Below are positions 70 to 56,745 of a stretch of 64,000 bases of DNA, in pieces. The stretch's first letter is position 1. Each line of letters starts with the position of its first letter. The stretch comes from Octopus vulgaris (taxonomy: Eukaryota): contig OX597841.1 in NCBI GenBank assembly GCA_951406725.2, positions 18,476,001 through 18,540,000 of the forward strand, written 5' to 3'. A program made the translations under genes and the position numbers. Under the pieces are notes generated by a model. That model did no database searches. It saw nothing but the letters and a program-made list of their open reading frames with translations, and was not told where the DNA came from.

Positions 70-2850
70 TTACATAGAGAGTATTTTGCGTAGGATATGA
101 GCAGTTCCCATGAGCACTATCTTTTGAACTTCTGCCATTTTTGGGTTTCCTGGTATCTGAGTTAGGTAGCTATCAGCCCCTTTTGCTATCATTCCCAGGG
201 CACCTATGACAACAGGTATTGTTTTAGTCTTCAGCTTCCACATTTTGCTGATTTCTATTTCAAGATCTTTATATTTGCTCAGTTTTTGGTAGGTCTTGAC
301 AGATACGTTTATATCGATTGGGACAGTCATATCAATGAGGAGGCATGTTCTTTGTTTGAAGTTTTTCAATATGATGTCTGGCCTATTTGCATCTATCTTC
401 CTGTCAGTTTGAATGGTGAAGTTCCAGAGGAGTGAGATGTGGTCATTTTCAAGCACTGGGGGTGGTTTGTGTTCCCACCAGTTTTTTTCATGGGGCAAAT
501 CCAGGTTTTTACAGATTACCCAGTGAATATATTGTGCAGCTCTATCGTGCCTGTTGAGATACTCTGTAGGCGCTAGAAGACTGCACTTGGAGACCACATG
601 GTCAATGGTTTCATTTTGTTGCTTGCATACACGACACGTTGGACTGCTTCTGATCTTTAATATGTTGGCCTGGTAGTTTCTTGTTGGTAGGCATTGATCT
701 TGAGCTGCTATGATAAACCCCTCTGTTTCAGATTTTAAGCCAGAGGCCATTAGCCATTGATGGGTCAGGGCTTTGTCGATATCTGCATTATTCGCTCTCT
801 TTGGGTATTTGCCATAGAGAGGTTTTTCTTGCCATTTATTATTCAGAATATCTAAGGCCGCAGTTTTGGCACGGGTTTTCATGCGCCTAGCTTTTTCTGT
901 GCTTGTTTCTTGTATATCTATCTCTAATTCCGAAATTGGTTGTATTCGGAATTCACTTAGATATTCCTTTGCCTGTTTTGTGACTGAGTATGATGCTTTC
1001 TTGTTTTCATGTTTTGAGACAAGTTTTAGCATCCAGTCCTCAGAGTTTTTCAGGTAGGTGTCTAGGCCAATTGTAGCAATCTTCATTGTTATTGCCAGTT
1101 GCAAAAGACCACGGCCTCCCTCTTTTCTTGGCAGATAGAGTCGTTCTGTATCTGCCTTAGGGTGGTGCATTCTATGCATTGTCAACAGTTTCCTTATTTT
1201 TCTGTCGAGCTGACATATTTCAGTAATTGACCAGTTAACAATATTGAAACTGTAAGTCACGACTGGTATAGCTAATGCATTGATTGCTTCGATCCTGTTT
1301 CTTGCATTCAGCTCTGTCTTGAGTATTGCTCTCACTCTTCGATAGCATTCTCTCCTGATCCTTTCCTTCATCTCTGAATGCCTTATTCCGTTCCCTTCAA
1401 TTATCCCTAGGTACTTGTAGCTCTCCGCTGGGTCTAGTTCTTTTATGACATTCTGTTGGTCAAGGTTAACGTTAGATGTTTCTGTCATTTTTCCTTTGAT
1501 AAAGGTAGCCTTTGCACATTTATCGAGGCCGAATTGCATTCTGATGTCGTCACTGAATTGTTTGACTATCGCTAGTAAGCCCTTGAGTTGTTGATCATTT
1601 TTTGCAAAAAGCTTTAAATCATCCATGTAAACGAGATGATTTATATTTTTATCAAACATTTTATACCCGTACTGCGCATCATTGAGCAGCTTTGAGAGAG
1701 GTATTAAGGATAAACAAAAGAGGAGTGGTGACAGTGAGTCACCCTGGAAAATGCCACACGAAATTTTTACATCACCAGCATTTAGGGATTCACTGTCACT
1801 GTTCAGAGTTAGTGTGGTTCTCCATGATCTCATACTTACAGTCAAGAAGTTTCGCAGAGTTGGTGCTATCTTATACATTTCAAGGCATTTCCTAATCCAG
1901 CTATGTGGTAGGCTATCAAAAGCCTTTTTATAGTCTATCCAGGCTATTGACAAGTTTTTGTGTCGTTTGTGACAATCTTCTAAGATCATCTTATTGATGA
2001 GTAGTTGGTCTTTACAGCCGTAGGATCCACGTTTACATCCTTTCTGTTCATTAGGGAATATGCTGCTGTCTGTTAAAAAACTATAGGTATATTCCGTCAG
2101 GACAGATGTTAGTGTTTTGTACATAGTTGTTAAGCAGGTTATGGGTCTATAGTTTTTTGGTTCATTTGTTTCTTCACTTTTTGGAAGCAGGTATGTTAAC
2201 CCATTAACTAGCCAAGGAGGCATCCTACTAGGGTGTTGCAAAACATCATTGTACAATTCTGTTAGCAGTTCATGGCTCTCTGGGAAGGCATTCAGCCAGA
2301 AGTTAGGAATTTTATCCTTTCCTGGAGACTTCCATTTGCTTGACCTCCTGAGAGCAGATCTTATATCTTCTACCTTGACACCCTCCCACTTTTGCTCTTC
2401 TAAGGGGTCCAGTTCTGTAGATATTCTGTCAATCCAGGGGGCCTTTTCGTTGTGTGTTTTTTCTTCTGCCCAGATTTTATTCCAAAATCTCTGCACTTCT
2501 TCTTTTGATGGTACAGACCCTGCAGTAAACGCTGTTTTTCCTATCTTCCTGTAAAAATTCTTGGTGTTATTTTTGAACATGTTGTTGTCCTTGAAAAATC
2601 TAACACGCTTTTCATACCTCGCTATGCGGGCAGCTTTGGCAGATACCTTTTGTTTGATGGTTTCTATGGTGGCATCAATATCAAGTATAGTTTTCATATT
2701 GTATTTTTTCAGTAATTTTTGGGTTTTTGTAGGTTTGGTAATCTTGTGAGCCTTAAGGTTTTTCAAATATTCAATGTCAGATCTAAATATTTTAATTTGT
2801 TGTTGCAGACGCTCTTGCCAAGAAGGCTTTTGTGGGACTGTTGCCGTTTT
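70..2850 (-). CDS. Non-LTR reverse transcriptase-RLE polyprotein, main frame (898 aa called; frame open upstream to ~2850, KPSWQERLQQQI...)
   Basis: Motifs: KSPGKD, NYRPITCL, EQKG, IDYKKAFDS, GIFQGDSLSP, YMDD, CRVC-x8-H-x4-C zinc knuckle, RHD, RPDI...D...KLSKY (PD-(D/E)xK nuclease). Confidence 0.93.
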   Translation of the reverse strand, partial: KTATVPQKPSWQERLQQQIKIFRSDIEYLKNLKAHKITKPTKTQKLLKKYNMKTILDIDATIETIKQKVSAKAARIARYEKRVRFFKDNNMFKNNTKNFYRKIGKTAFTAGSVPSKEEVQRFWNKIWAEEKTHNEKAPWIDRISTELDPLEEQKWEGVKVEDIRSALRRSSKWKSPGKDKIPNFWLNAFPESHELLTELYNDVLQHPSRMPPWLVNGLTYLLPKSEETNEPKNYRPITCLTTMYKTLTSVLTEYTYSFLTDSSIFPNEQKGCKRGSYGCKDQLLINKMILEDCHKRHKNLSIAWIDYKKAFDSLPHSWIRKCLEMYKIAPTLRNFLTVSMRSWRTTLTLNSDSESLNAGDVKISCGIFQGDSLSPLLFCLSLIPLSKLLNDAQYGYKMFDKNINHLVYMDDLKLFAKNDQQLKGLLAIVKQFSDDIRMQFGLDKCAKATFIKGKMTETSNVNLDQQNVIKELDPAESYKYLGIIEGNGIRHSEMKERIRRECYRRVRAILKTELNARNRIEAINALAIPVVTYSFNIVNWSITEICQLDRKIRKLLTMHRMHHPKADTERLYLPRKEGGRGLLQLAITMKIATIGLDTYLKNSEDWMLKLVSKHENKKASYSVTKQAKEYLSEFRIQPISELEIDIQETSTEKARRMKTRAKTAALDILNNKWQEKPLYGKYPKRANNADIDKALTHQWLMASGLKSETEGFIIAAQDQCLPTRNYQANILKIRSSPTCRVCKQQNETIDHVVSKCSLLAPTEYLNRHDRAAQYIHWVICKNLDLPHEKNWWEHKPPPVLENDHISLLWNFTIQTDRKIDANRPDIILKNFKQRTCLLIDMTVPIDINVSVKTYQKLSKYKDLEIEISKMWKLKTKTIPVVIGALGMIAKGADSYLTQIPGNPKMAEVQKIVLMGTAHILRKILSM

Positions 2851-3402
2851 CTAATCTTTACACCACATAGGATCGTTGAGATTTTCGCGGATGCATAGTA
2901 TAGGTGGTTGAGGTTTGTGATATCAACATCATTAACTGAAATTATATCCTTAAGTGCAAGCCGGATTTTACCAATTATTTTCATGTTTTGGTTAGAGTTG
3001 CGGATTTTAGGAAGTGTATCACGCTCATCCATGCTGGTTTCTTTAATTTTCAGCCATTCAATCATGATTTGATTTTTTAGCTCATGTAGTTCTGTTGGGT
3101 CAATATTTGTGTGACTTTCTTTATCTATTTGATGCTCATCTGTCTTAGTGTTTATGATTGGTTCAGGGCGTATTTCACTTTGCCTATCACTTATACTAAC
3201 TCTTTCAATCCTCTCTTCGTTTTTATCCGCCCTGGGCTGGTCTATAATCATTTCCTCTGTATTATCTTCTCTAGCTGCAGCTTCGTTCATTTTATCCGAT
3301 ATTGCTTGTCTAACCTGATCAATCTCTACTTCAGTCAGTAATTTCTTTTTTATAATGTTTCTTCTAACATTGGCAAGCTTGTTACTGTCTATGTAGGGTC
3401 TT
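2847..3402 (-). pseudogene. N-terminal part of the same R4/Dong ORF, separated from the main frame by a 1-nt frameshift
   Basis: NKLANVRRNIIKKKLLTEVEI and LPKIR...NHLYYASA segments resemble Dong N-termini. Adding one A to the A4 run at 2847-2850 fuses the two frames (KIRKTATVPQKPSW). Confidence 0.8.
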
Positions 3403-6466: not shown

Positions 6467-7092
<626 letters not shown>

Positions 7093-7673: not shown

Positions 7674-7723
7674 ACCGGAGTAAACACATAAATGTGAAGC
7701 AAGGTGGAAAAAAGAGTACTCAA

Positions 7724-7755
<32 letters not shown>

Positions 7756-7974
7756 GCATGTATATATATATACTTTATTTAAAAGCAGCAGAAATTCAAC
7801 AAAACCTGTTACTCAGAGTTTCACGTTCCCGTGTCCGTCGAACGGGAACATGAAACTCCAAGTAACAGGTTTTGTTGAGTTTCTGCTGCTTTAAATAAAG
7901 CATATTACTCTGCCCCTGGTATTTGAGTACTCTTTTTTTCCACCTTGTTTCACATTTATGTGTTTACTCCGGTG
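7674..7974. mobile_element. Foldback element family 1, second copy (left arm interrupted by TA repeat); hammerhead relic at 7831-7869 (+)
   Basis: accggagtaaacacataaatgtg...cacatttatgtgtttactccggt. GT-CCGTCGA-ACG GGAA CAT-GAAAC TCCAA GTA-ACAGG. Confidence 0.75.
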
Positions 7975-11367: not shown

Positions 11368-11533
11368 ATCACATGATCACATGAGTGACCAGGCTATCAG
11401 ATGTTGCTACACATCGCTGGTCACAATGCGCTTTGCATTGTTTTAGCCCCGCTGGCTAAGCGGGCAGGCCTACAGAAGAAAGAGTGAGAGAAAGTTGTGA
11501 CGAAAGAGTACAGCAGGGATTGCCACCACCCCC
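11368..11533 (-). mobile_element. SINE family D, 3' part only
   Basis: Matches 18722-18967 and 23222-23535. Confidence 0.75.
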
Positions 11534-12026
11534 TGATGAGTAGCTAGTGAAGTACCCTCATTGAGTAGTTATTACTTTCAAGGTTCTGCTAGCTAGGAAA
11601 CATATGTAGCCTGGATATTATCTACTCCATTCCTTAAATTTGGATTCTTATTTGCATACATAGCAACCCAGGTTGCTAACCATGGACAATAAAGTAACTT
11701 TTTCAGCTTACTGAACTTTGATATGGGAAAAATTTAATACCTTCTACACCAATAAACTACTATTGTTCCTGAAAGTTGCTTTTTATTGTCCAAGGTTAGC
11801 AACCTGGGTTGCTATGTATGCAAATAAGAATCCAAATTTAAGGAATGGAGTAGATAATATCCAGGCTACATATGTTTCCTAGCTAGCAGAACCTTGAAAG
11901 TAATAACTACTCAATGAGGGTACTTCACTAGCTACTCATCAGGCTGAAGATATCTTAGTTAAATGAAGGTTACATTGTTGTCAAGGGATCCCAAGTTAAC
12001 TCATGGGAGATTTGACTGAAAGTGGG

Positions 12027-16669: not shown

Positions 16670-17680
16670 TAGAGAGACTTAAAGAATTCCAAGCACTTCT
16701 GAATGGACTTGACATAAACATTCAATTTATGATGGAATAGAGCCACCAACAACTTCCATTCCTCAACATCCTCATTAAGAAATCCAGCAACAAAATAGAA
16801 ACAGACATATATTATAAGCTCATGCACTCCAAGAAATATCAGCTGTTCAACTGATGCCACCCCAGACATACTAGGGTGAATATCCATTACAACCTGACAT
16901 ATTATCTGATAGAAGCACCAGGGACAGATGCCTACATGAACTAAAGGATACACATATCAGCGGGAACTACCCACCATCACCAATTGATATAGGCTTTCAA
17001 CATTCCCTACAACTCAACATCCACGAACTCAGACACACCAACTAAAGAAGGATTTACAACCAACAGCCCTACCATACATACCCATACACAACCCCCTAAA
17101 CAAGAGGCCTTCAACACCATCCTCCAGAACATCCCTTTATTAAAAGGGGACCATAGAATGGATCAAATCCTCTAAATGCACACCATCATAAAGAACAAAA
17201 GACAGTCCAAATCAATGAAAAGTCTTCTAACACAGGCCCAAGTACACTCGTCAACAACATCAAAACCGACTGTAAAAAAAAATGCAGAAGACCTAACTAT
17301 GGTGTATGTGTCAACCTAATTGAGGGGTTGGGATTCTCCTTCAAACAGGGTCAACGTTTTACAGTGAAAAACAACTTCACATGTGCTTTGGAAAAACAAA
17401 TATATGTATTAACTTGTTCAGGGTGTCGAGAACAAAATATTGGTCAAACTAAAAGCAGTCTATGCTAGAGGATGATGGTACATAGATCCCAGATTAAAAT
17501 ACAAGAATACAGAAAAATAAGCTTAAGCGAGCACATTGATATTTGAGCCACTAATGAACAACCCAACTTTAGAATTTTTCAGGGACAATGCAACCTATAA
17601 TCAGTGCATTAGCGAAAAAGCATATTTTACCACAAAATATAAACCTAGTTTGAATGCTTCCACCTCAGATGAAACTACAA
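16670..17680 (+). pseudogene. Penelope-like element remnant (RT thumb + GIY-YIG endonuclease)
   Basis: Frameshifted pieces read LPFLNILIKK...IETDIYYK, THNP, FTVKNNFTCA..NxIYVLTCSGCREQNIGQT...RM.VHRSQI, KPSLN. Confidence 0.8.
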
Positions 17681-17781
17681 GAATTTTGAAAAATTGCAAC
17701 CACTACTGCTACGACCACAACAGGTCACTTTTAGCTCATTTGACCATTAAAGAAGATTCCATGAACAATCTACTGTGTCAC

Positions 17782-20455: not shown

Positions 20456-20463
<8 letters not shown>

Positions 20464-20792
20464 GGGTTCAGTAAAATAATTTACTTTACCACACACTGAA
20501 CTTTTAGAAATAGCAGCCAAAAATCTTAGCTATTTCTTCTACTATAAGAAAAATCTCCCAGACAATGTATACTCAAAAATATTTTTGAGTATACATTGTC
20601 TGGGAGATTTTTCTTATAGTAGAAGATATAGCTAAGATTTTTTGGCTGCTATTTCTAAAAGTTCAGTGTGTGGTACTGAACCCTAATTATATAACGTAAT
20701 GTTTTAAATATACCTTAAATGGTCTTCTTACATACTGAACACTACTTGGTAAAATTAATTAATAATTAATTGATTTTACCCTTTTATTATTG
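20456..20792. mobile_element. Foldback family 2, second copy (loop-less palindrome centred on 20580/20581)
   Basis: Arms 20456-20580 and 20581-20691 (small deletion in the right arm). The tail matches 6995-7092. Confidence 0.85.
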
Positions 20793-20804
20793 ATGATATA
20801 TATA

Positions 20805-21220
20805 TGGAGTGGCTGTGTGGTAAGTAGCTTGCTAACCAGCCACATGGTTCTGGGTTCAGTCCCACTGCGTGGCATCTTGGGCAAGTGTCTTCTGCTATAG
20901 CCCCAGGCCGACCAATGCCTTGTGAGTGGATTTGGTAGACGGAAACTGAAAGAAGCCCGTCGTATATATGTATATATATATATTTATGTGTGTGTGTGCT
21001 TGTGTGTCTGTGTTTGTCCCCCTAGCATTGCTTGACAACCGATGCTTGTGTGTTTACGTCCCCGTCACTTAGCGGTTCGGCAAAAGAGACCGACAGAATA
21101 AGTACTGGGCTTACAAAGAATAAGTCCCGGGGTTGATTTGCTCGACTAAAGGTGGTGCTCCAGCATGGCCGCAGTCAAATGACTGAAACAAGTAAAAGAG
21201 TAAAAGAGTAAAAGAGTAAA
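20805..21220 (+). mobile_element. tRNA-derived SINE family A, full length. Further copies at 21465-21585, 30590-30800, 32615-32930, 43150-43585, 48590-48800, 49817-50235, 52305-52700 (+) and 30860-31262, 53060-53240 (-)
   Basis: GGAGTGGCTGTGTGGTAAG (A box)...GGGTTCAGTCCC (B box), an internal TA/TG microsatellite and a GTAAAAGA tail. Confidence 0.9.
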
Positions 21221-21431: not shown

Positions 21432-21589
21432 GACTCATCTCTCTCTGTCACTCCATATATATAGGCAGAGTCATGGCAGTGTGGTAGGAAGTTTGCTTCC
21501 CAACTACATGGTTCTGGGTTCAGTCCCACTGCGTGGCAACTTGGGCAAGTGTCTTCTACTATAGCCTTAGGTCAACCAAAGCCTTTTAC

Positions 21590-22385
21590 TGGGCTTAGTA
21601 AATTAATTTGGTCTCTAATAGAGCATAAATAATTTGGTTTGGAATGGAATATTCTATCTAGATCTTTTCTATATGATAAAGGTAAATCCTTTGGTCTGCT
21701 CTGTACCGAAGAACAGTATCTCATTCTGTTCTTGGAGAAATCTTTTGTAAACACTTTTGAAGAATACATTTATCGTTGCAAACATGGGCAAAAACATACC
21801 TTTAGTTCCTATAAGTAGTTTCTACAAATCTATAAAATTTGACTTTTGACTGTCTTCTTCCATTTCATTTCCACTACATATATCTATTTACATTCCTTTA
21901 AGCTTTATTTCCACTCATCTATTGCACTATATTTCTCCACTCTTAATTTTCTGTATATTTCTTTCTCCTCCTTCTCATTCTCTAAATTGCCTTTGACATT
22001 ACATCTCTTACCGATTTTTTAAAAATTAACTTGCCAGTGTTCCCTTCATCATATACGTGGTCATCACATTCGGTTAAAATTTATGTGTTTTGTTTCTCTG
22101 TTTTTCCCTGATGAAATGATTACATTCTTTGACATCATTTTATTCTCTCGGGAATAATACGAATGTTTTCTTCGAAACATATGTTGGAAGTATAAAGATT
22201 TGAATAACACCTGTGTTTAACTTCATTTCTAAATTTATCTAAGCTACACAAAAAACATTTCACAAAATCCTGGGATTTCTACCTTTTTAAGTAGGTTATA
22301 GCATCCTTGGCACTTTTGTGAATTTTTGCTACCCTGGTAACTTTTTACTTATTTTTTCCGTGTTATTCGTACACATTGAGAAAAT
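21590..22385 (+). mobile_element. Penelope-like element 3' end: GIY-YIG C-terminus, 3' UTR, hammerhead motif (22101-22190) and tail
   Basis: Translation LSKLIWSL...WNILSRSFLYDKGKSFGLLCTEEQYLIL...N..EEYIYRCKHGQK fits the PLE W-I..Y..C.LC..EK..I..LN...C.H pattern. TTTCC-CTGATGA...GAAAC ATAT GTT-GGAAG. Confidence 0.75.
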
Positions 22386-22420
22386 ACACGTACATTTATA
22401 TATATATATGTGTGTGTGTA

Positions 22421-22470
<50 letters not shown>

Positions 22471-22619
22471 TGTATATAAATGTATGTATATATATGTATG
22501 TATGTATGTATATATGTATATATGTATGTATATATGTATATATATGTATGTATGTATATATGTATATATGTATATATGTATGTATATATATATGTATGTA
22601 AGTATTTATATATATATAT

Positions 22620-23047
22620 AAATGGATAAATGATTTATCTTTTGTTCACCGTTAACATGGAAAACTCAATAAACAGTTACCAGGGTAGCAAAATTCATGC
22701 CAGTAACATGGTTGAAGCGACCTATTCAAAGGCAGAAACTCCGGGTTAATGTGCAGTAATTTGTATATAATAAATAAATAAATAAATAAATGGAGTTGAA
22801 CGAAGATGTTATTAAAATTCTTTTACTTTTGACATATGTTTCGAAGACAACATGGTATTATTCCAAAGGAATAAACGGTGTAAAATGCAATCTTCTCATC
22901 AGGAGAAGAGAGAGGCTCTCTCTTTCTTTCCTGATGAGAAGATTGCATTTTACACCGTTTATTCCTTTGGAATAATACCATGTTGTCTTCGAAACATATG
23001 TCAAAAGTAAAAGAATTTTAATAACATCTTCGTTCAACTCCATTTAT
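22620..23047. mobile_element. Foldback family 6 (118-bp apparently identical arms) with a hammerhead motif in each arm; homologous to the PLE 3' end at 22100-22370
   Basis: Arms 22786-22903 and 22930-23047. CTGATGA-GAAGA...TCTTC-GAAAC ATAT GTC at 22931-23002. The left tail agttaccagggtagcaaaatt matches 22321-22343 inverted. Confidence 0.85.
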
Positions 23048-23148
23048 ATATATATATATATATATAGATATATATATGTGTGTGTATATATGTATGTAGA
23101 TATATATATGTATGTATGCATGTATGTATATATGTATGTATGTATTTA

Positions 23149-23195
<47 letters not shown>

Positions 23196-23561
23196 GTATA
23201 TATATATGTATGTATATATATATCACTTCACTTGATCACTTGACCGACCAGACAATCAGATGTTGCTACACATCGCTGGTCACAATGCGTTCGCATTGTT
23301 TTAGCCTTCGAATGACGCCACCCCGCTGGCTAAGAGAGCAGGCCAACAGAAAAAAGAGTGAGAGAAAGAGTGGTGAAAGAGTACATTAGGGATCATCACC
23401 CCCTGCTGGAGCCTCGTGGAGCTTTTTAGGTGTTTTCACTCAATAAACACACACAACACCCGGTCTGGGAATCGAAACCGCGATCCTATGACCGCGAGTC
23501 CGCTGCCCTAACCACTGGGCCATTGCGCCTCCACATGTATATCTATATGTATATATATCTA

Positions 23562-23762
23562 TAACTGTAAATATAATGAGAGTTTTTCCGATGGTCGGAT
23601 AACTGAAGAGATGGTGGTGTGGATTTCCACCTCGGCATCCGAAACTTAGAATTTTACCTTGGCTACCGAATAATTGTCATATATTTACACAGATAAATTC
23701 CTCTATTTACATAATATCGAGGTCTCTTTCTTTCTTTTGTTATCTTACCGTTTTTACCAATA
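23562..23762 (+). mobile_element. Family 4 monomer with hammerhead motif at 23598-23658
   Basis: GATAA-CTGAAGA-GATG...CATC-C-GAAAC TTAGA ATT-TTACC. Ends in tcttaccgtttttaccaa followed by TA. Confidence 0.75.
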
Positions 23763-23779
23763 TATGTATGTATATATAT

Positions 23780-24508
23780 GTTTAAATATTTGTTGTGCAA
23801 GATTTTTTATGTGAAGTCGTGTGTTGAAACAGATATTGTTATATTTCGGAATGGTCATTCTGCCAGTTTAGCCAATAAAAACACACACACTATATATTTG
23901 GTGTTACTTTGCTTCAGTGTTATTTATTTTTTACATTAATCTTAATCTTATTTTGGCCAGAGTTCTTTCGTCACACTCCTGTGACTGCATCAGTGGTCCT
24001 TTGTTTTCTTCTTTCGTATTTGTGTCTCTCCTTACTAACCGTCAGCCATTTTGTATTTCTATTGTATGTCTTCATTTGCGCATGCTTATATCTCTATGTG
24101 CGTTTATGTTTATTTAGTGTGTGTGTGTGGGGATGCCTGTAATATTTGTATCTTCTGTTTATATACGTTCATGTAATTTGTATATATATAAACAGAAGAT
24201 ACAAATATTACAGGCATCCCCCCCACACACACTAAATAAACATAAACGCACATAGAGATATAAGCATGCGCAAATGAAGACATACAATAGAAATACAAAA
24301 TGGCTGATGGTTAGTAAGGAGAGACACAAATAAGAAAGAAGAAAACAAAGGACCACTGATGCGGTCATAGGAGTGTGACGAAAGAACTCTGGCCAAAATA
24401 AGATTAAGATTAATGTAAAAAATAAATAACACTGAAGCAAAGTAACACCAAATATATAGTGTGTGTGTTTTTATTGGCTAAACTGGCAAAATGACCATTC
24501 CGAAATAT

Positions 24509-24516
<8 letters not shown>
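23780..24516. mobile_element. Foldback family 7 (about 333-bp arms, 19-nt loop) with a variant hammerhead-like motif in each arm
   Basis: Arms 23833-24165 and 24185-24516 with scattered mismatches. Motifs at 23955-23999 (-) and 24351-24394 (+). Confidence 0.85.
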
Positions 24517-24712: not shown

Positions 24713-27290
24713 TCACACTAGTGCACCACCTGTAGTTACTCGGTGTTGTTTCCAATATTGTTTATGATGAAGTAGCAAATTGGATGGAGCTGCTCTTCTT
24801 TGTGTCTCCCGCTGCAATTTGAGTTCATCTGGTATCTCAGATAGAAATCTGTCCAGGCATTTCTTGAAAACATCCACATCAAAACCATGTAGATCTCTAA
24901 GGTTGCCTGGAAGGATGTTGAACAATTGTAGGCCCTTGAAACCCAGACTGTTGCAGTACAGTGTCCTTATTTTAGGTGGGGAAGATGGGATCTTTGGTAT
25001 GACGCAATGCCGTCCAGTTCAAGGATTGGTATAGCTGTCAATTCCAAAACTGGGAGCTAAACCCTCCTAGATGTTCCAAATATTTAACACTGCATCTCTC
25101 TCTCTCTCGTCTTCTCTCCAGAGACTCAGCTCCTTTAGCTTCTCCCAGTTGCCCATCTTTTGCATTGAGTCAGTCTTCTTTGTGTAATGGTGCTGGATTG
25201 CTTCGAGTTCAACAGTTTGTTTCACACTCTTTGGAGTCCATAGTTGGGAGCAGTAGTCCAAGCAGCTGAGAACAAAAATCTTCCATAGGAGTAGCATGGC
25301 CTGCCTTTTCCTGGTTCTGAATGTCCTCAGAATCCATCCAGCCACTCGCCTGCACAGTGTTGCCATCTTGGAAATGTGCACATGTAATGTTGCATCTTGT
25401 GAACCTCCAGGTCACGCACTGACTCTGACTCTGGGATCATATTACCTTCTGGTCCAGTGTATTCTGATTTTAACCTGGTATTGGACAGCTAGTGGAGTGC
25501 CCAAAATTTCACAGCATTGAACTGCATATTATTTTTGTTAGCCCATTTGTAGATTTTGTTTACGTCTTTCTGCAGTTTTATGATGTCCTCTGGGTTCCTA
25601 ACTACCTGCAATACTTTTGTGTCGTCAGCATAACTGGTCAGTTTGGTTGATTGTACAGTGGAGGGTATGTCTGAGAGGGCCACCACAAATAGTAGTGGCC
25701 CCAGTACAGTTCCATGTGGGACTCCACTGGAAATTGGTGTCTCTTCAGAGTGAGCATCATTGACTACAACTGTTTGACTCCTGCCCTTAAGAAAATCACG
25801 AAGCCACTCTCCCAGTTTCCCGGTAATACCAAGGTTTTGCAGCTTGTGACATTTGCTATGATCAGCCTTGTCAAAGGTCTTGGCAAAGTCAAGGTATATC
25901 GTGTCTACAGCTGACTGGCTTAGCTGTTGCTTCAGTACCCAGTCAAAGTACTGCGGCAACTGTGTGAGGCAATTCCTCCCTGGATGGAAGCCGTGTTGCG
26001 TGTTTGTGGGAAGGTTGTTTTCTTCTAGGAACATGACCAGCCCTTTTCTGACAATGTGTTCCATTGTGTTGCTAACATGTGAGGTCAGAGAGCCGGGCCT
26101 ATAGATTTTAGCATCTGCACTGATCCCTCCTTTATGGACAGGACATATGATACCCTCTTTTAGCATGTTGGGAAGTTTACCACATGCAAGGAAACTCTGA
26201 AAGAGTATCTGCAGTGGCTTTGCAAGGGCCTTTTTACATGTCTTTAAGAGAACAGCTGGGAGTTCATCTGGGCGTGTTGCTGAGTTTGATCTCATCTCAT
26301 CAATGGCTGATATTACATCCTCTTCTGCTATGTTGATGTAATTGATGAGGGCCTGCTTTCCAAATAGATTCGCTACATTGAAAAACTCCCTCAGCTTGTT
26401 CATTTGCATATTTTCCAGTGGAGAAGTGAAAACACTTCAGAATTGTTTATTTAGTGCTTTACTTATCTTCCCTGGGTCCCCAGGTTAGTGAGCCATTTTT
26501 ACCAAATAGTGGCCCTATCTTATAGCATACTGAGGCAGACCCCCTTTGCCAATATGTAGAAGGCTTTCGGATTTCTTCAAATATTTTCAACTACCCAGGT
26601 TTCTATTTCTTCTCTATCTTTCTCATGGGAGATTTTGAGTTTATTTCTATCTTGAAGAGTTCCTCTGTCAGGTGGGATTTCATACTGTCAATAAGGTGTT
26701 TGTTTAAATGATTCGAGATCTTTATTCTCTACCACATGAGTATTCTCCTGTCTCGGCGAATGATATTTTTGTGTGTATTGGCTCCCTTCTCTGGGACATA
26801 TTTAATGCATATGGCTTGCATTATTGACATGAATTTACTGAGTTTCATATAAATGTTTTGCATAGAGAGGCTTTTAGGCCAGTCTGGCTGGAGTATGTCT
26901 TTCAATTGAATTATAGAAATTTAAGCTGGATAGGGTTTCAGCCCCATCCTTGGGGTGCTTATCTTTAGTTAATTCCAGGCCATACATTGTCAGTTCTATC
27001 ATGTTATGATCTGAGAATATTGTCGGTGATATATTTATGTTGTGGATAATTTCCACATTGTTTGTAAAACAGAGGTCCAGGATATTTTTGTGCTTGATTG
27101 GAGAGATTATGGTCTGTTCCATGAATAGCATTTTCGTAAAATCAAGTAGAGATTCTGCTTGATTTCACTCTTTGTGTATCATTCCTGGGGTTTTGTTACC
27201 CTCAGGCCACCTGATTTTGGGGAAGATGAAGTCACCCATCAGGAATATGATCCAATTGTGTTAGTACTTCCTTTATCGCACTGAGGCTTT
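24713..27290 (-). mobile_element. CR1/L2-group LINE ORF2 (APE + RT), decayed
   Basis: MGDF, LDLCFTN...SDHNMI (APE). QHGF, YLDFAKTFDK, SGVPHGTVLGP, YADD, LDYCSQLW (RT and C-terminus). Multiple frameshifts. Confidence 0.88.
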
Positions 27291-27292
27291 CC

Positions 27293-27590
27293 TCAAATTT
27301 GCTCTATGTTTGATGAATTTGAATAGGATAGTTTTAAAGTGTGACGGTTAAATATTTTGCTGTACACTCCAGTTTTAGGGAAGCAGCAATCCAGTACAGT
27401 GAAAAACTGCTTCGTGATATTAGATGAGATGCTGGAGTCCCAAATCGGGTTATACCAAAAGATGTCATGGTTTTTATATTTTTGGTTAGGTCTGTTTGTC
27501 TGGGTGCTTGGAGTGGCAATTGGATTTTGTGGCAGTAGTTGTTTAATTTGTTGTCTATTATAAGTTTTCTTTAACTTATGGTTGATTCTA
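27293..27590 (-). pseudogene. Penelope-like element fragment (RT-endonuclease linker)
   Basis: IFWYNPIW...SNITKQFF...FPK...SKIFNRHTLKLSYS...NIEQI matches the PLE WFNPP...KIFNxxTxKxSYS motif. Confidence 0.78.
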
Positions 27591-29417: not shown

Positions 29418-29663
29418 ATAATAAATATTAGGGAATAAATCCAAATTTACAGGGAAAAATCAGATTTAGGATTAAATCCAATTTTATAGTAAAATATTAT
29501 AAAATATTATTAGAGACAAAACCACTATTTTGCAAAACAAACAAGGAAAGACTTAATCAATACATAAAATTTTAATAAATAGTCTTGACTATTTATTAAA
29601 ATTTTATGTATTGATTAAGTCTTTCCTTGTTTGTTTTGCAAAATAGTGGTTTTGTCTCTAATA

Positions 29664-29673
<10 letters not shown>
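28830..29673. mobile_element. Unclassified TA-embedded repeat family ending in a perfect 87-bp hairpin; related copy at 40625-41130
   Basis: Arms 29498-29584 and 29587-29673. 29060-29270 matches 40925-41125, and 29425-29470 matches 40825-40875 inverted. Confidence 0.65.
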
Positions 29674-35969: not shown

Positions 35970-35973
<4 letters not shown>

Positions 35974-36319
35974 AAGGAATGACCCTGAGAAGGTCGTTCG
36001 ACTCACTTGGAAAGAGCAGCTAAAACTCAAAACCGCCAAAATAGTAGTAATTCTGAAACTAGAGGAAAATAAAAAACATTTATCACCTTTTTTTTTGGTT
36101 TTTTATGTTTTTTATTTTCCTCTAGTTTCAGAATTACTACTATTTTGGCGGTTTTGAGTTTTAGCAGCTCTTTCCAAGTGAGTCGAACGACCTTCTCAGG
36201 GTCATTCCTTAATATTTTGTTGAACGTATTATATAGTCTGTGACTATTTCTATTTTCTCACTTGACCGCTGGTGGCAGAAGAATTCTTCTTGAATTTTTT
36301 GTTACCCTTATATTGATTG

Positions 36320-55597: not shown

Positions 55598-56745
55598 GAT
55601 GGACAGAATTTCTAGTTAACTAAACAATTTAAAACTTTGTATACTGGTAGAATGTGTCAAAAGAAAACATTATTTTCACTTGGCTTTTTTGAGAAAATTG
55701 TAATTTGTAAGTTTAACATAGTTTAATTCTTCGAATTTTAACCAATGAAATACCAGCATTTGAGCTCAAATCATTTGCTGCGTTATCGATATTGATAAAG
55801 AAACGAGACGCACGCCGCATACACACACACACACATATATTCAGATACATACACACGTACACTTGCACACACACACACACACACACTCTGTAATTAATAT
55901 ATAAACGTACACACACATACAAACGGAGATATACATACACACACATACACATCCAAGCATACATACACGTTCATGAGTTCGCACTGGTGTCGATAGAATC
56001 GACTTAATACTTTTGTATCTCATGCTTTGTCCCCTCTGTGTTTTGCCCCTTGCTGCAACAAATTTACACAAAAGGTAAATAAACCAGAAGGCGGGGAGTC
56101 AATGTTTCATCGTTTCGGGGTCAATAAATTAAGTACCAATTACGCACTGGTGTCGAGGATTTTTTTCCCAATTTATATCACAGCCTCCGACAAGCTGGGG
56201 CATCCTTTTATGAAAAAATATTTCGCAGATTTTTACAATACAACCCACACTCCACGCAGACCCTCTAAACTGATTTAGGCATATTATTGTTTTGTTTTTG
56301 TTGTTTTTGGCCCTTCAAAACCATGGGAGAAGCCCTTTCGGTAAAAAAAATAAAGAAAATATTAAAAAAATATCGTTAATATTTTTATTGGGTGATGAAA
56401 TTCATCGATTTAAGAGATATGGCTGTTATTTCTAGAACATGCTTTTTTTATCAATATCGATGAGTGAGACAGACAGAAGAGAAAAGGATGAATAACACGT
56501 GTGTGTGTGTGTGTGTGTATGCTGTTTACGTTGCAACAGGATGTTGTCTGAGTTTTTAGACACAGCAAATGATTTGAGCTCAAATGCTGGCATTTCATTG
56601 GTTAAAATTCGAAGAATTAAACTACGTTAAACTTACAAATTACAATTTTCTCAAAAAAGCCAAGTGAAAATAATGTTTTCTTTTGACACATTCTACCAGT
56701 ATACGAAGTTTTAAATTGTTTAGTTAACTAGAAATTCTGTCCATC
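55598..56745. repeat. 183-bp near-identical inverted repeats around a 780-bp spacer (MITE/DNA-transposon-like)
   Basis: Arms 55598-55780 and 56563-56745. Confidence 0.85.

Follow-up and report, generated by a model that had tools for sequence, protein, structure and literature searches.

Penelope-like elements (PLEs) of the Hydra clade, as set out in the parts of Craig et al. 2021 available to us (PMC8557442), are diagnosed by RWK and DKT motifs, a CxCx5C linker and no CCHH motif, and target (TA)n. Their C-terminal GIY-YIG endonuclease, which lies downstream of the reverse transcriptase within a single ORF, ends with CxxC, E, N and CxH, and the ORF is followed by a UTR and a type I hammerhead ribozyme (HHR); the Hydra rows of File S2 usually have a short helix III, and their cleavage position is usually U, A or C. 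The same source lists a cephalopod member, Hydra-1_Obim, an inverted 5'-truncated copy of the Hydra-clade family Penelope-13_HM, and long helix II loops in two plant PLE-X families.

Three further systems bear on the present locus, each cited from the portions of the source at hand. Penelope elements of Adineta vaga occur as inverted pLTRs joined head to head at a palindrome, with a one-sided tail and AT-rich targets, and self-priming was proposed for them (PMC3846280). Metazoan PLE hammerheads are of type I, with a short helix I, a palindromic helix III suited to dimer folding and a G-C pair where helix II begins (Cervera and de la Pena 2014, PMC4209133). In vitro, the PAc Poseidon element cleaves and extends both strands of an AT-rich target, its tail spans two start sites of reverse transcription (RT), and HHR cleavage is dispensable for insertion (Frangieh et al. 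2024, PMC11167929).

The window, that is, the whole stretch of 64,000 nucleotides of Octopus vulgaris DNA that was analysed, is AT-rich, with 118 tandem-repeat rows, many dispersed repeats and 29 merged (TA)10+ tracts. We identified in it two elements, A and B, whose 3' ends face the same TA tract (Table 1). The best account of them, to which we give a probability of roughly 0.87, is that two independent Hydra-type PLE insertions entered one (TA)n tract, A being a decayed 5'-truncated copy and B a shorter head-to-head pair. An earlier note on this DNA had already placed two relatives in one TA tract, and the placement holds. It needs no special cause, since Hydra elements target (TA)n, the window offers 29 such tracts, and other tracts are also flanked by element ends.

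Table 1. Features of elements A and B and their flanks (window positions).
Feature	Position	Strand	Basis or remark
5' part of dispersed SINE-like repeat, cut where element A begins	21474-21585	+	blastn; flank, outside A
Element A overall	21588-22396	+	3' end of PLE: endonuclease C-terminal part, type I hammerhead motif, tail
Element A, decayed C-terminal end of Hydra-type PLE ORF	21588-21818	+	peptide search, alignment, tblastn
Element A, pyrimidine-rich 3' UTR, 283 nt, stop codon to hammerhead	21819-22101	+	sequence; putative role, from ORF-UTR-HHR order in Hydra consensi
Element A, type I hammerhead motif	22102-22190	+	core pattern match
Element A, tail, CATT at 22396 running into (TA)n	22191-22396	+	alignment, end motif
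TA/TATG microsatellite between facing 3' ends of A and B	22397-22620	.	tandem-repeat scan, period 4, 56 copies
Element B, two head-to-head end pieces	22621-23047		foldback proper 22786-23047
Element B, tail, left copy only, homologous to A's tail, CATT into (TA)n	22621-22785	-	alignment; 165 bp
Element B, left arm with hammerhead, core 22902 down to 22832	22786-22904	-	rare alleles at 22830, 22857
Element B, head-to-head junction, imperfect 24-nt centre	22905-22928	.	centred on 9-nt quasi-palindrome 22911-22919
Element B, right arm with hammerhead, core 22931-23001	22929-23047	+	stops at internal CCATT/TAT site
TA/TATG microsatellite, right end of element B	23048-23223	.	tandem-repeat scan

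Judged by its sequence, element A represents the terminal part of the endonuclease region of a Hydra-type PLE. Its peptide of 76 codons (frame +3, 21588-21815, stop TAG at 21816-21818) is interrupted by a single in-frame stop, the internal TAA at 21630-21632; the GIY and YIG words are both missing and the C-terminal part of the endonuclease alone remains. An unindexed protein search with this region (21590-21815 in the earlier note) returned 45 matches with a best E of 1.8e-10, and the 10 that were looked up are unnamed proteins. W, CxLC, E, N and CxH are nearly invariant in the alignment of the matches, and A keeps the near-invariant C41, E44, N57, C66 and H68. The Hydra-clade arrangement of CxxC and CxH flanking a conserved E and N is thus present in A, except that the first Cys of CxxC (position 38) is Gly. 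A profile of the matches, leaving out the window's own row, recovers 21579-21821 at E 7.8e-28, a partly circular value in that the matches had been found with the same peptide. Pfam assigns 0 families to the A peptide, and a word-indexed search with it among longer proteins gave 13 candidates, none significant; two shorter relatives have weak Pfam GIY-YIG matches below the cut-off.

The 5' end of element A abuts a cut repeat, so that the RT and GIY-YIG words are missing from A, and the clade motifs were therefore scored on relatives about 26-40% identical to its peptide. A search with the peptide alignment yielded 310 long proteins; the 120 listed among them are, with few exceptions, about 660-750 aa in length. 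Among these 120, the A peptide matches 105 at a median of 6 residues from their C-terminus, and the motifs RW[KR], DK[TS], [YF]xDD and CxCx5C occur in 109, 118, 119 and 113, respectively; [AS]DKG occurs in 0, and in 0 of the 112 that could be parsed are the GIY- and YIG-like words separated by a stretch with two Cys. These motifs of the relatives agree with the published Hydra diagnosis (PMC8557442), and we regard element A as most probably of the Hydra clade. The earlier note had proposed a PLE GIY-YIG C-terminus at 21590-21815; the peptide matches and the motifs of the long relatives bear this out and refine it to the Hydra clade. The abutting repeat is 86.6% identical to positions 11-122 of a copy at 20800-20970, and blastn locates it 11 times in the window, the query counted; the label SINE-like is our interpretation.

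Other protein-coding remnants occur in the window. A second Hydra-type ORF fragment, which lies between the RT thumb and the linker, is found at 27290-27511 (-), with 119 tblastn rows from the 120 listed long relatives and a best E of 7e-14. At 25489-26436 (-), a frame of 315 aa carries a reverse transcriptase domain (RVT_1, E 4e-20) and apparently belongs to a non-LTR element. Broken frames at 17157-17700 (+), with no Pfam support, resemble by eye what we take to be the Cys-bearing GIY-YIG endonuclease of another PLE clade.

A hammerhead motif and a tail follow the ORF end of element A, as had been claimed for 22101-22190, with the core at 22108-22184 and the tail reaching 22396. Both the hammerhead after the ORF and the 3' end at a TA tract are Hydra-clade features; the 5' end adjoins the SINE-like repeat and not TA. 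The motif runs from CTGATGA at 22108 to GAAACATATGT ending at 22184, followed by T and the helix I strand to 22190. Helix I is paired, helix III is the palindrome ACATATGT, the cleavage site is GUU, and helix II is 59 nt long with a mismatch at its base; the motif escaped a relaxed helix filter. Judged by its decay, element A looks older.

The A-B homology, as read from the two sequences, is certain. Element A aligns with the reverse complement of 22617-22914 at 69.6% identity over 309 nt (E 3e-37), with a local score of 217, whereas none of 1000 shuffles scored above 54, and the alignment begins slightly upstream of the core and extends to the CATT/TATA end common to both. The foldback had been described as a diverged homolog of the hammerhead and tail region of A, and this alignment confirms it. 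Because A and B are only 70% alike, they represent separate families. That both are pieces of Hydra-type PLEs is highly probable. For B, the link to a PLE ORF would run through its homology to A, given that the two are different families; no ORF of B's own family was seen, the loose ends of its contigs reaching at most 30 letters upstream, and this counts against the PLE reading of B.

Element B is a head-to-head pair of 5'-truncated copies of a high-copy family related to A. Its arms, 22786-22904 and 22929-23047, match over 119 bp with 0 mismatches (118 bp had been reported by eye), and their extent defines both the foldback proper and the one-sided tail. In the right arm, the hammerhead has a helix II of 53 nt with 6 paired bases at its foot, a GUC site, and a first helix I pair of C-A at 23003. 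The right copy halts at an internal CCATT/TAT that resembles the true end. Taken with the left tail, this means that both outer ends of B are 3' ends in TA and that its centre is a 5'-to-5' joint. Contigs of B's family (loose ends at 22904 and 22918) also carry the 9-nt quasi-palindrome of the centre, 22911-22919, upstream of the core.

These features, namely head-to-head 5'-truncated copies, a junction palindrome and a one-sided tail, are those of PLE inverted insertions, and element B shares them, together with AT-rich targets, with the Adineta vaga Penelope copies as described in the available part of PMC3846280. Unlike those copies, B has no ORF between its repeats and consists of a pair of stubs, each beginning immediately 5' of the hammerhead core, and no target-site duplication is readable in the TA tracts around A and B. 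In B the tail extends 165 bp past the short end as against the 30-40 bp published, a difference that counts against the PLE reading. Animal non-LTR retrozymes likewise are non-coding, PLE-derived units with type I hammerheads, but in the accessible part of the preprint (bioRxiv 10.64898/2026.07.22.740005) they form head-to-tail tandem repeats whereas B is an inverted pair. A retrozyme identity for B was rejected, as B is inverted and a tandem-repeat scan of 21500-23100 gave no head-to-tail hammerhead array.

The hammerheads of both elements depart from the known ones within their own architecture. The core pattern CUGANGA ... GAAA ... UH, which was derived from these very copies, has 5 matches in the window and 0 in 100 shuffles. 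In neither element are helices I, II and III all paired up to the core: the base of helix II is mismatched in A and the first helix I pair is C-A in B, and owing to these mismatches neither is likely to self-cleave well. A strict helix filter recovered no hammerhead copy, Rfam at gathering scores gave 0 matches in the window, and free folding of three hammerhead regions was no better than that of shuffles (z -1.04, -0.71 and -1.37); the last two results weigh against the preferred account. When Rfam was run at E up to 10 over 22000-23100, the 39 matches included no hammerhead and consisted mainly of miRNA models, to which any long hairpin or TA repeat will conform; these were rejected. A metagenome scan with a B-specific pattern found 0 loci, and one with a loose pattern found 78, which were taken as chance: 0 had a Hydra-type protein match, 0 had both helices, and one had a weak blastn match. 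Compared with the metazoan PLE hammerheads covered by the consulted part of PMC4209133, A and B share type I, the short helix I and the palindromic helix III, and B also the G-C at the base of helix II; they differ in a much longer helix II and in a mismatch next to the core in both. In the accessible File S2 of PMC8557442, helix II is roughly 25 nt at most in 26 Hydra rows, against 53-59 nt here, and the hammerhead and 3' end of Hydra-1_Obim differ, judged by eye, from those of the families described here.

To place B within its family, contigs of 4 sequencing runs (X1, X3, X11 and X2, of 24 listed) were aligned to 22621-22965 at 80% likeness, which covers 345 of the 1481 searched bases. Run X2 may be RNA, but that is a guess, and we draw no evidence of transcription from it. 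All 4 runs show the family in abundance, with 161, 99, 59 and 166 contig records aligned, respectively. In X1, summed depth is about 2200-3400 over most of the B arm and 60-980 over the tail, and single long contigs mostly have depths of 2-7; we read these depths as many copies, more over the arm than over the tail, and not as a copy number. Element B differs from the family majority at about 6 of some 250 covered bases, and this closeness argues that B is not ancient.

The same contigs show that several letters of B are rare in its family (shares of depth in X1, X3, X11 and X2, obtained by subtraction on the assumption that the remainder is the window's letter). In the arms, the B allele accounts for 0.8%, 0, 0 and 1.0% at 22830 and for 0.7%, 1.3%, 6.0% and 4.0% at 22857, and the two are mirrored at 23003 and 22976; in the tail, it accounts for 1.1%, 0, 0 and 0 at 22698 and for 1.4%, 0, 0 and 2.3% at 22701. 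The letter at 22830 directly follows the GUC site and leaves the first helix I pair unpaired, and the family majority letter (99-100% of depth) pairs. The three motifs that the earlier note had seen as common to A and B are all present in both; the T of its helix II insert (ggaataatac), however, is not diagnostic, as 94-99% of the depth of B's family has another letter at 22857.

It is very improbable that B is an assembly or library artefact in the form of a fold-back chimera. Such a chimera would explain the perfect arms, and it would agree with the lack of a listed contig that spans the whole stretch and of depth at 22916 in X3 and X11; however, the arms differ in centre and length, both ends stop at CCATT/TA sites, the junction sits on the family's own palindrome, and a contig of run X1 with a depth of 4.33 covers the junction position 22916, although X1 may be the source sample.

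Beyond A and B, the window holds further foldbacks. Outside simple repeats there are 15 near-perfect inverted pairs, one row being the A-B pair itself; a hammerhead core is present in 4 of them (6476, 11532, 22786 and 23833), and the 7765 hairpin joins this group by its homology to 6467. The general claim that the hairpins are PLE pLTR derivatives is supported for these five, and the rest have no core; near-perfect foldbacks or inverted pairs at 20460-20690, 29498-29673, 35970-36214 and 55598-56745 are among those with no recognisable hammerhead core. The hairpins at 6467-6669 and 7765-7972 belong to one family; both contain hammerheads, are joined head to head and have a one-sided tail and an architecture as in B, and their centres differ. 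In each of them, AAATAAAG is preceded by four T in the short arm and by three T in the long arm. On the other side of a TA tract from the 7765 hairpin, and facing it, lies an isolated tail-end piece of this family (7675-7723), which makes this another shared tract. At 11532-11943 there is a tail-to-tail foldback with exact arms of 150 bp, the same GAAACATATGT, a helix II of 57 nt, no TA flanks, and a short palindromic motif resembling gctaccctggtaac of A and B; its alignments to A or B are not significant (scores 23-30, within the shuffle range). The head-to-head foldback at 23833-24516 has arms of about 330 bp with 6 mismatches and a decayed core, CTGATGC, about 180 nt from its centre, and a TA-bounded piece at 23540-23760 has a hammerhead-like core, CTGAAGA ... 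GAAAC; the last 16 bases of the piece recur at about 20400 between TA runs.

The identity of the arms had been taken to mean that B is young. This does not follow, since the two arms have in common alleles seldom found in the family, and a young copy of a mutated source and homogenisation of one arm by the other would both fit. We give about an even chance to a recent insertion from a slightly mutated source locus, in which case the arms have had no time to diverge and the rare alleles came from the source. The 0 differences in 119 bp of arms and the small distance from the family majority are consistent with this, a dead ribozyme would be no bar to insertion, and the tail alleles of B are unseen in X3 and X11, though contigs drop rare variants. 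Against it, the 24-nt centre differs between the arms, and the alleles at 22698 and 22701 have in X1 roughly the depth of a single contig (by subtraction, 5.6 and 7.2), with no sibling copies visible.

It is rather doubtful, by comparison, that B is moderately old and that hairpin-templated repair or gene conversion homogenised its arms after insertion by copying private mutations. The rare alleles 22830/23003 and 22857/22976 do sit in both arms, the change at 22830 is of the CpG-decay type, and the arms of each of the hairpins at 6467 and 7765 share variants that are missing from the other hairpin; yet copying from one template would also yield shared variants, and the 22857 allele, which makes up 1-6% of depth in the runs other than X1, may mark a subfamily. 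Moreover, two near-private alleles in 144 covered tail bases stand against 0 arm-to-arm differences, a contrast that we treat as a hint only, as P = 0.14 conditional on 2 tail mutations and 0.037 if the rate is taken as known. Other foldbacks have retained differences between their arms, with 5 mismatches in 64 at 7765 and 6 in 332 at 23833.

It is improbable that B is a non-autonomous palindromic element with a fixed centre that is copied whole. An X2 contig with a depth of 77.5 crosses 22916, and a loose end of 8 letters matching B's centre occurs in X3 and X11, but these letters may be a plain upstream variant; the other loose ends run upstream as linear family sequence, and no strand-changing joints are found among those listed. 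Similarly, the hairpins at 6467 and 7765 share their arm-specific difference in T-run length, as copying of a whole unit would predict, while their centres differ.

Returning to two independent PLE insertions as the preferred account, the sequences show the anatomy and order of parts, the A-B homology, the clade motifs in the relatives of A and the junction on the family's own palindrome, and published work on PLEs suggests a course of events. We hypothesize that the element's endonuclease would nick an AT-rich target and that target-primed reverse transcription at (TA)n would then use uncleaved RNA as its template, as both copies hold sequence on either side of the cleavage site. Two 3' start sites for reverse transcription could give one long end with a tail and one short end; synthesis might halt just 5' of the hammerhead core, where a short palindrome would let the ends fold back or anneal into an inverted pair. 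Two-strand cleavage at AT-rich sites, two RT starts and an uncleaved template, as reported for PAc Poseidon in the part of PMC11167929 available, would account for the ends of B, though that element belongs to another clade and its mechanism is borrowed here by analogy. We hold the priming steps to be somewhat more plausible than not. Two primed cDNAs, or one fold-back followed by trimming, could each yield B, and we cannot tell between them; a single fold-back, on its own, would not explain a second copy that exceeds the first in length.

Earlier publications on PLEs already cover this clade, its hammerhead and the inverted arrangement, and A and B leave existing knowledge of these elements unchanged; the helix II of 53-59 nt is a mild oddity in an otherwise ordinary case. 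In the literature consulted, mostly outside subscription journals, nothing specific to these cephalopod hairpins was found beyond PMC8557442, and neither B's family nor so long a helix II in Hydra elements is described, though the supplement of the retrozyme preprint or Repbase may hold such families. Standard hammerhead descriptors might miss a helix II of this length. It is tentatively conceivable, though unlikely, that a high-copy Hydra-type PLE lineage carries this helix II in three families with little or no further sequence in common, and that its foldback stubs stay perfect through homogenisation between the arms or are copied anew as whole palindromic units. If so, the foldback stubs would be long-lived sources of perfect 119-bp hairpin RNA and not young debris, and arm identity would be no dating tool. 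More generally, Hydra-type PLEs supply the end pieces that make up some of this genome's TA-embedded hairpins, which is useful for repeat annotation, and B's family is abundant enough for a genome-wide study of how PLE inverted junctions form and whether palindrome arms are homogenised.
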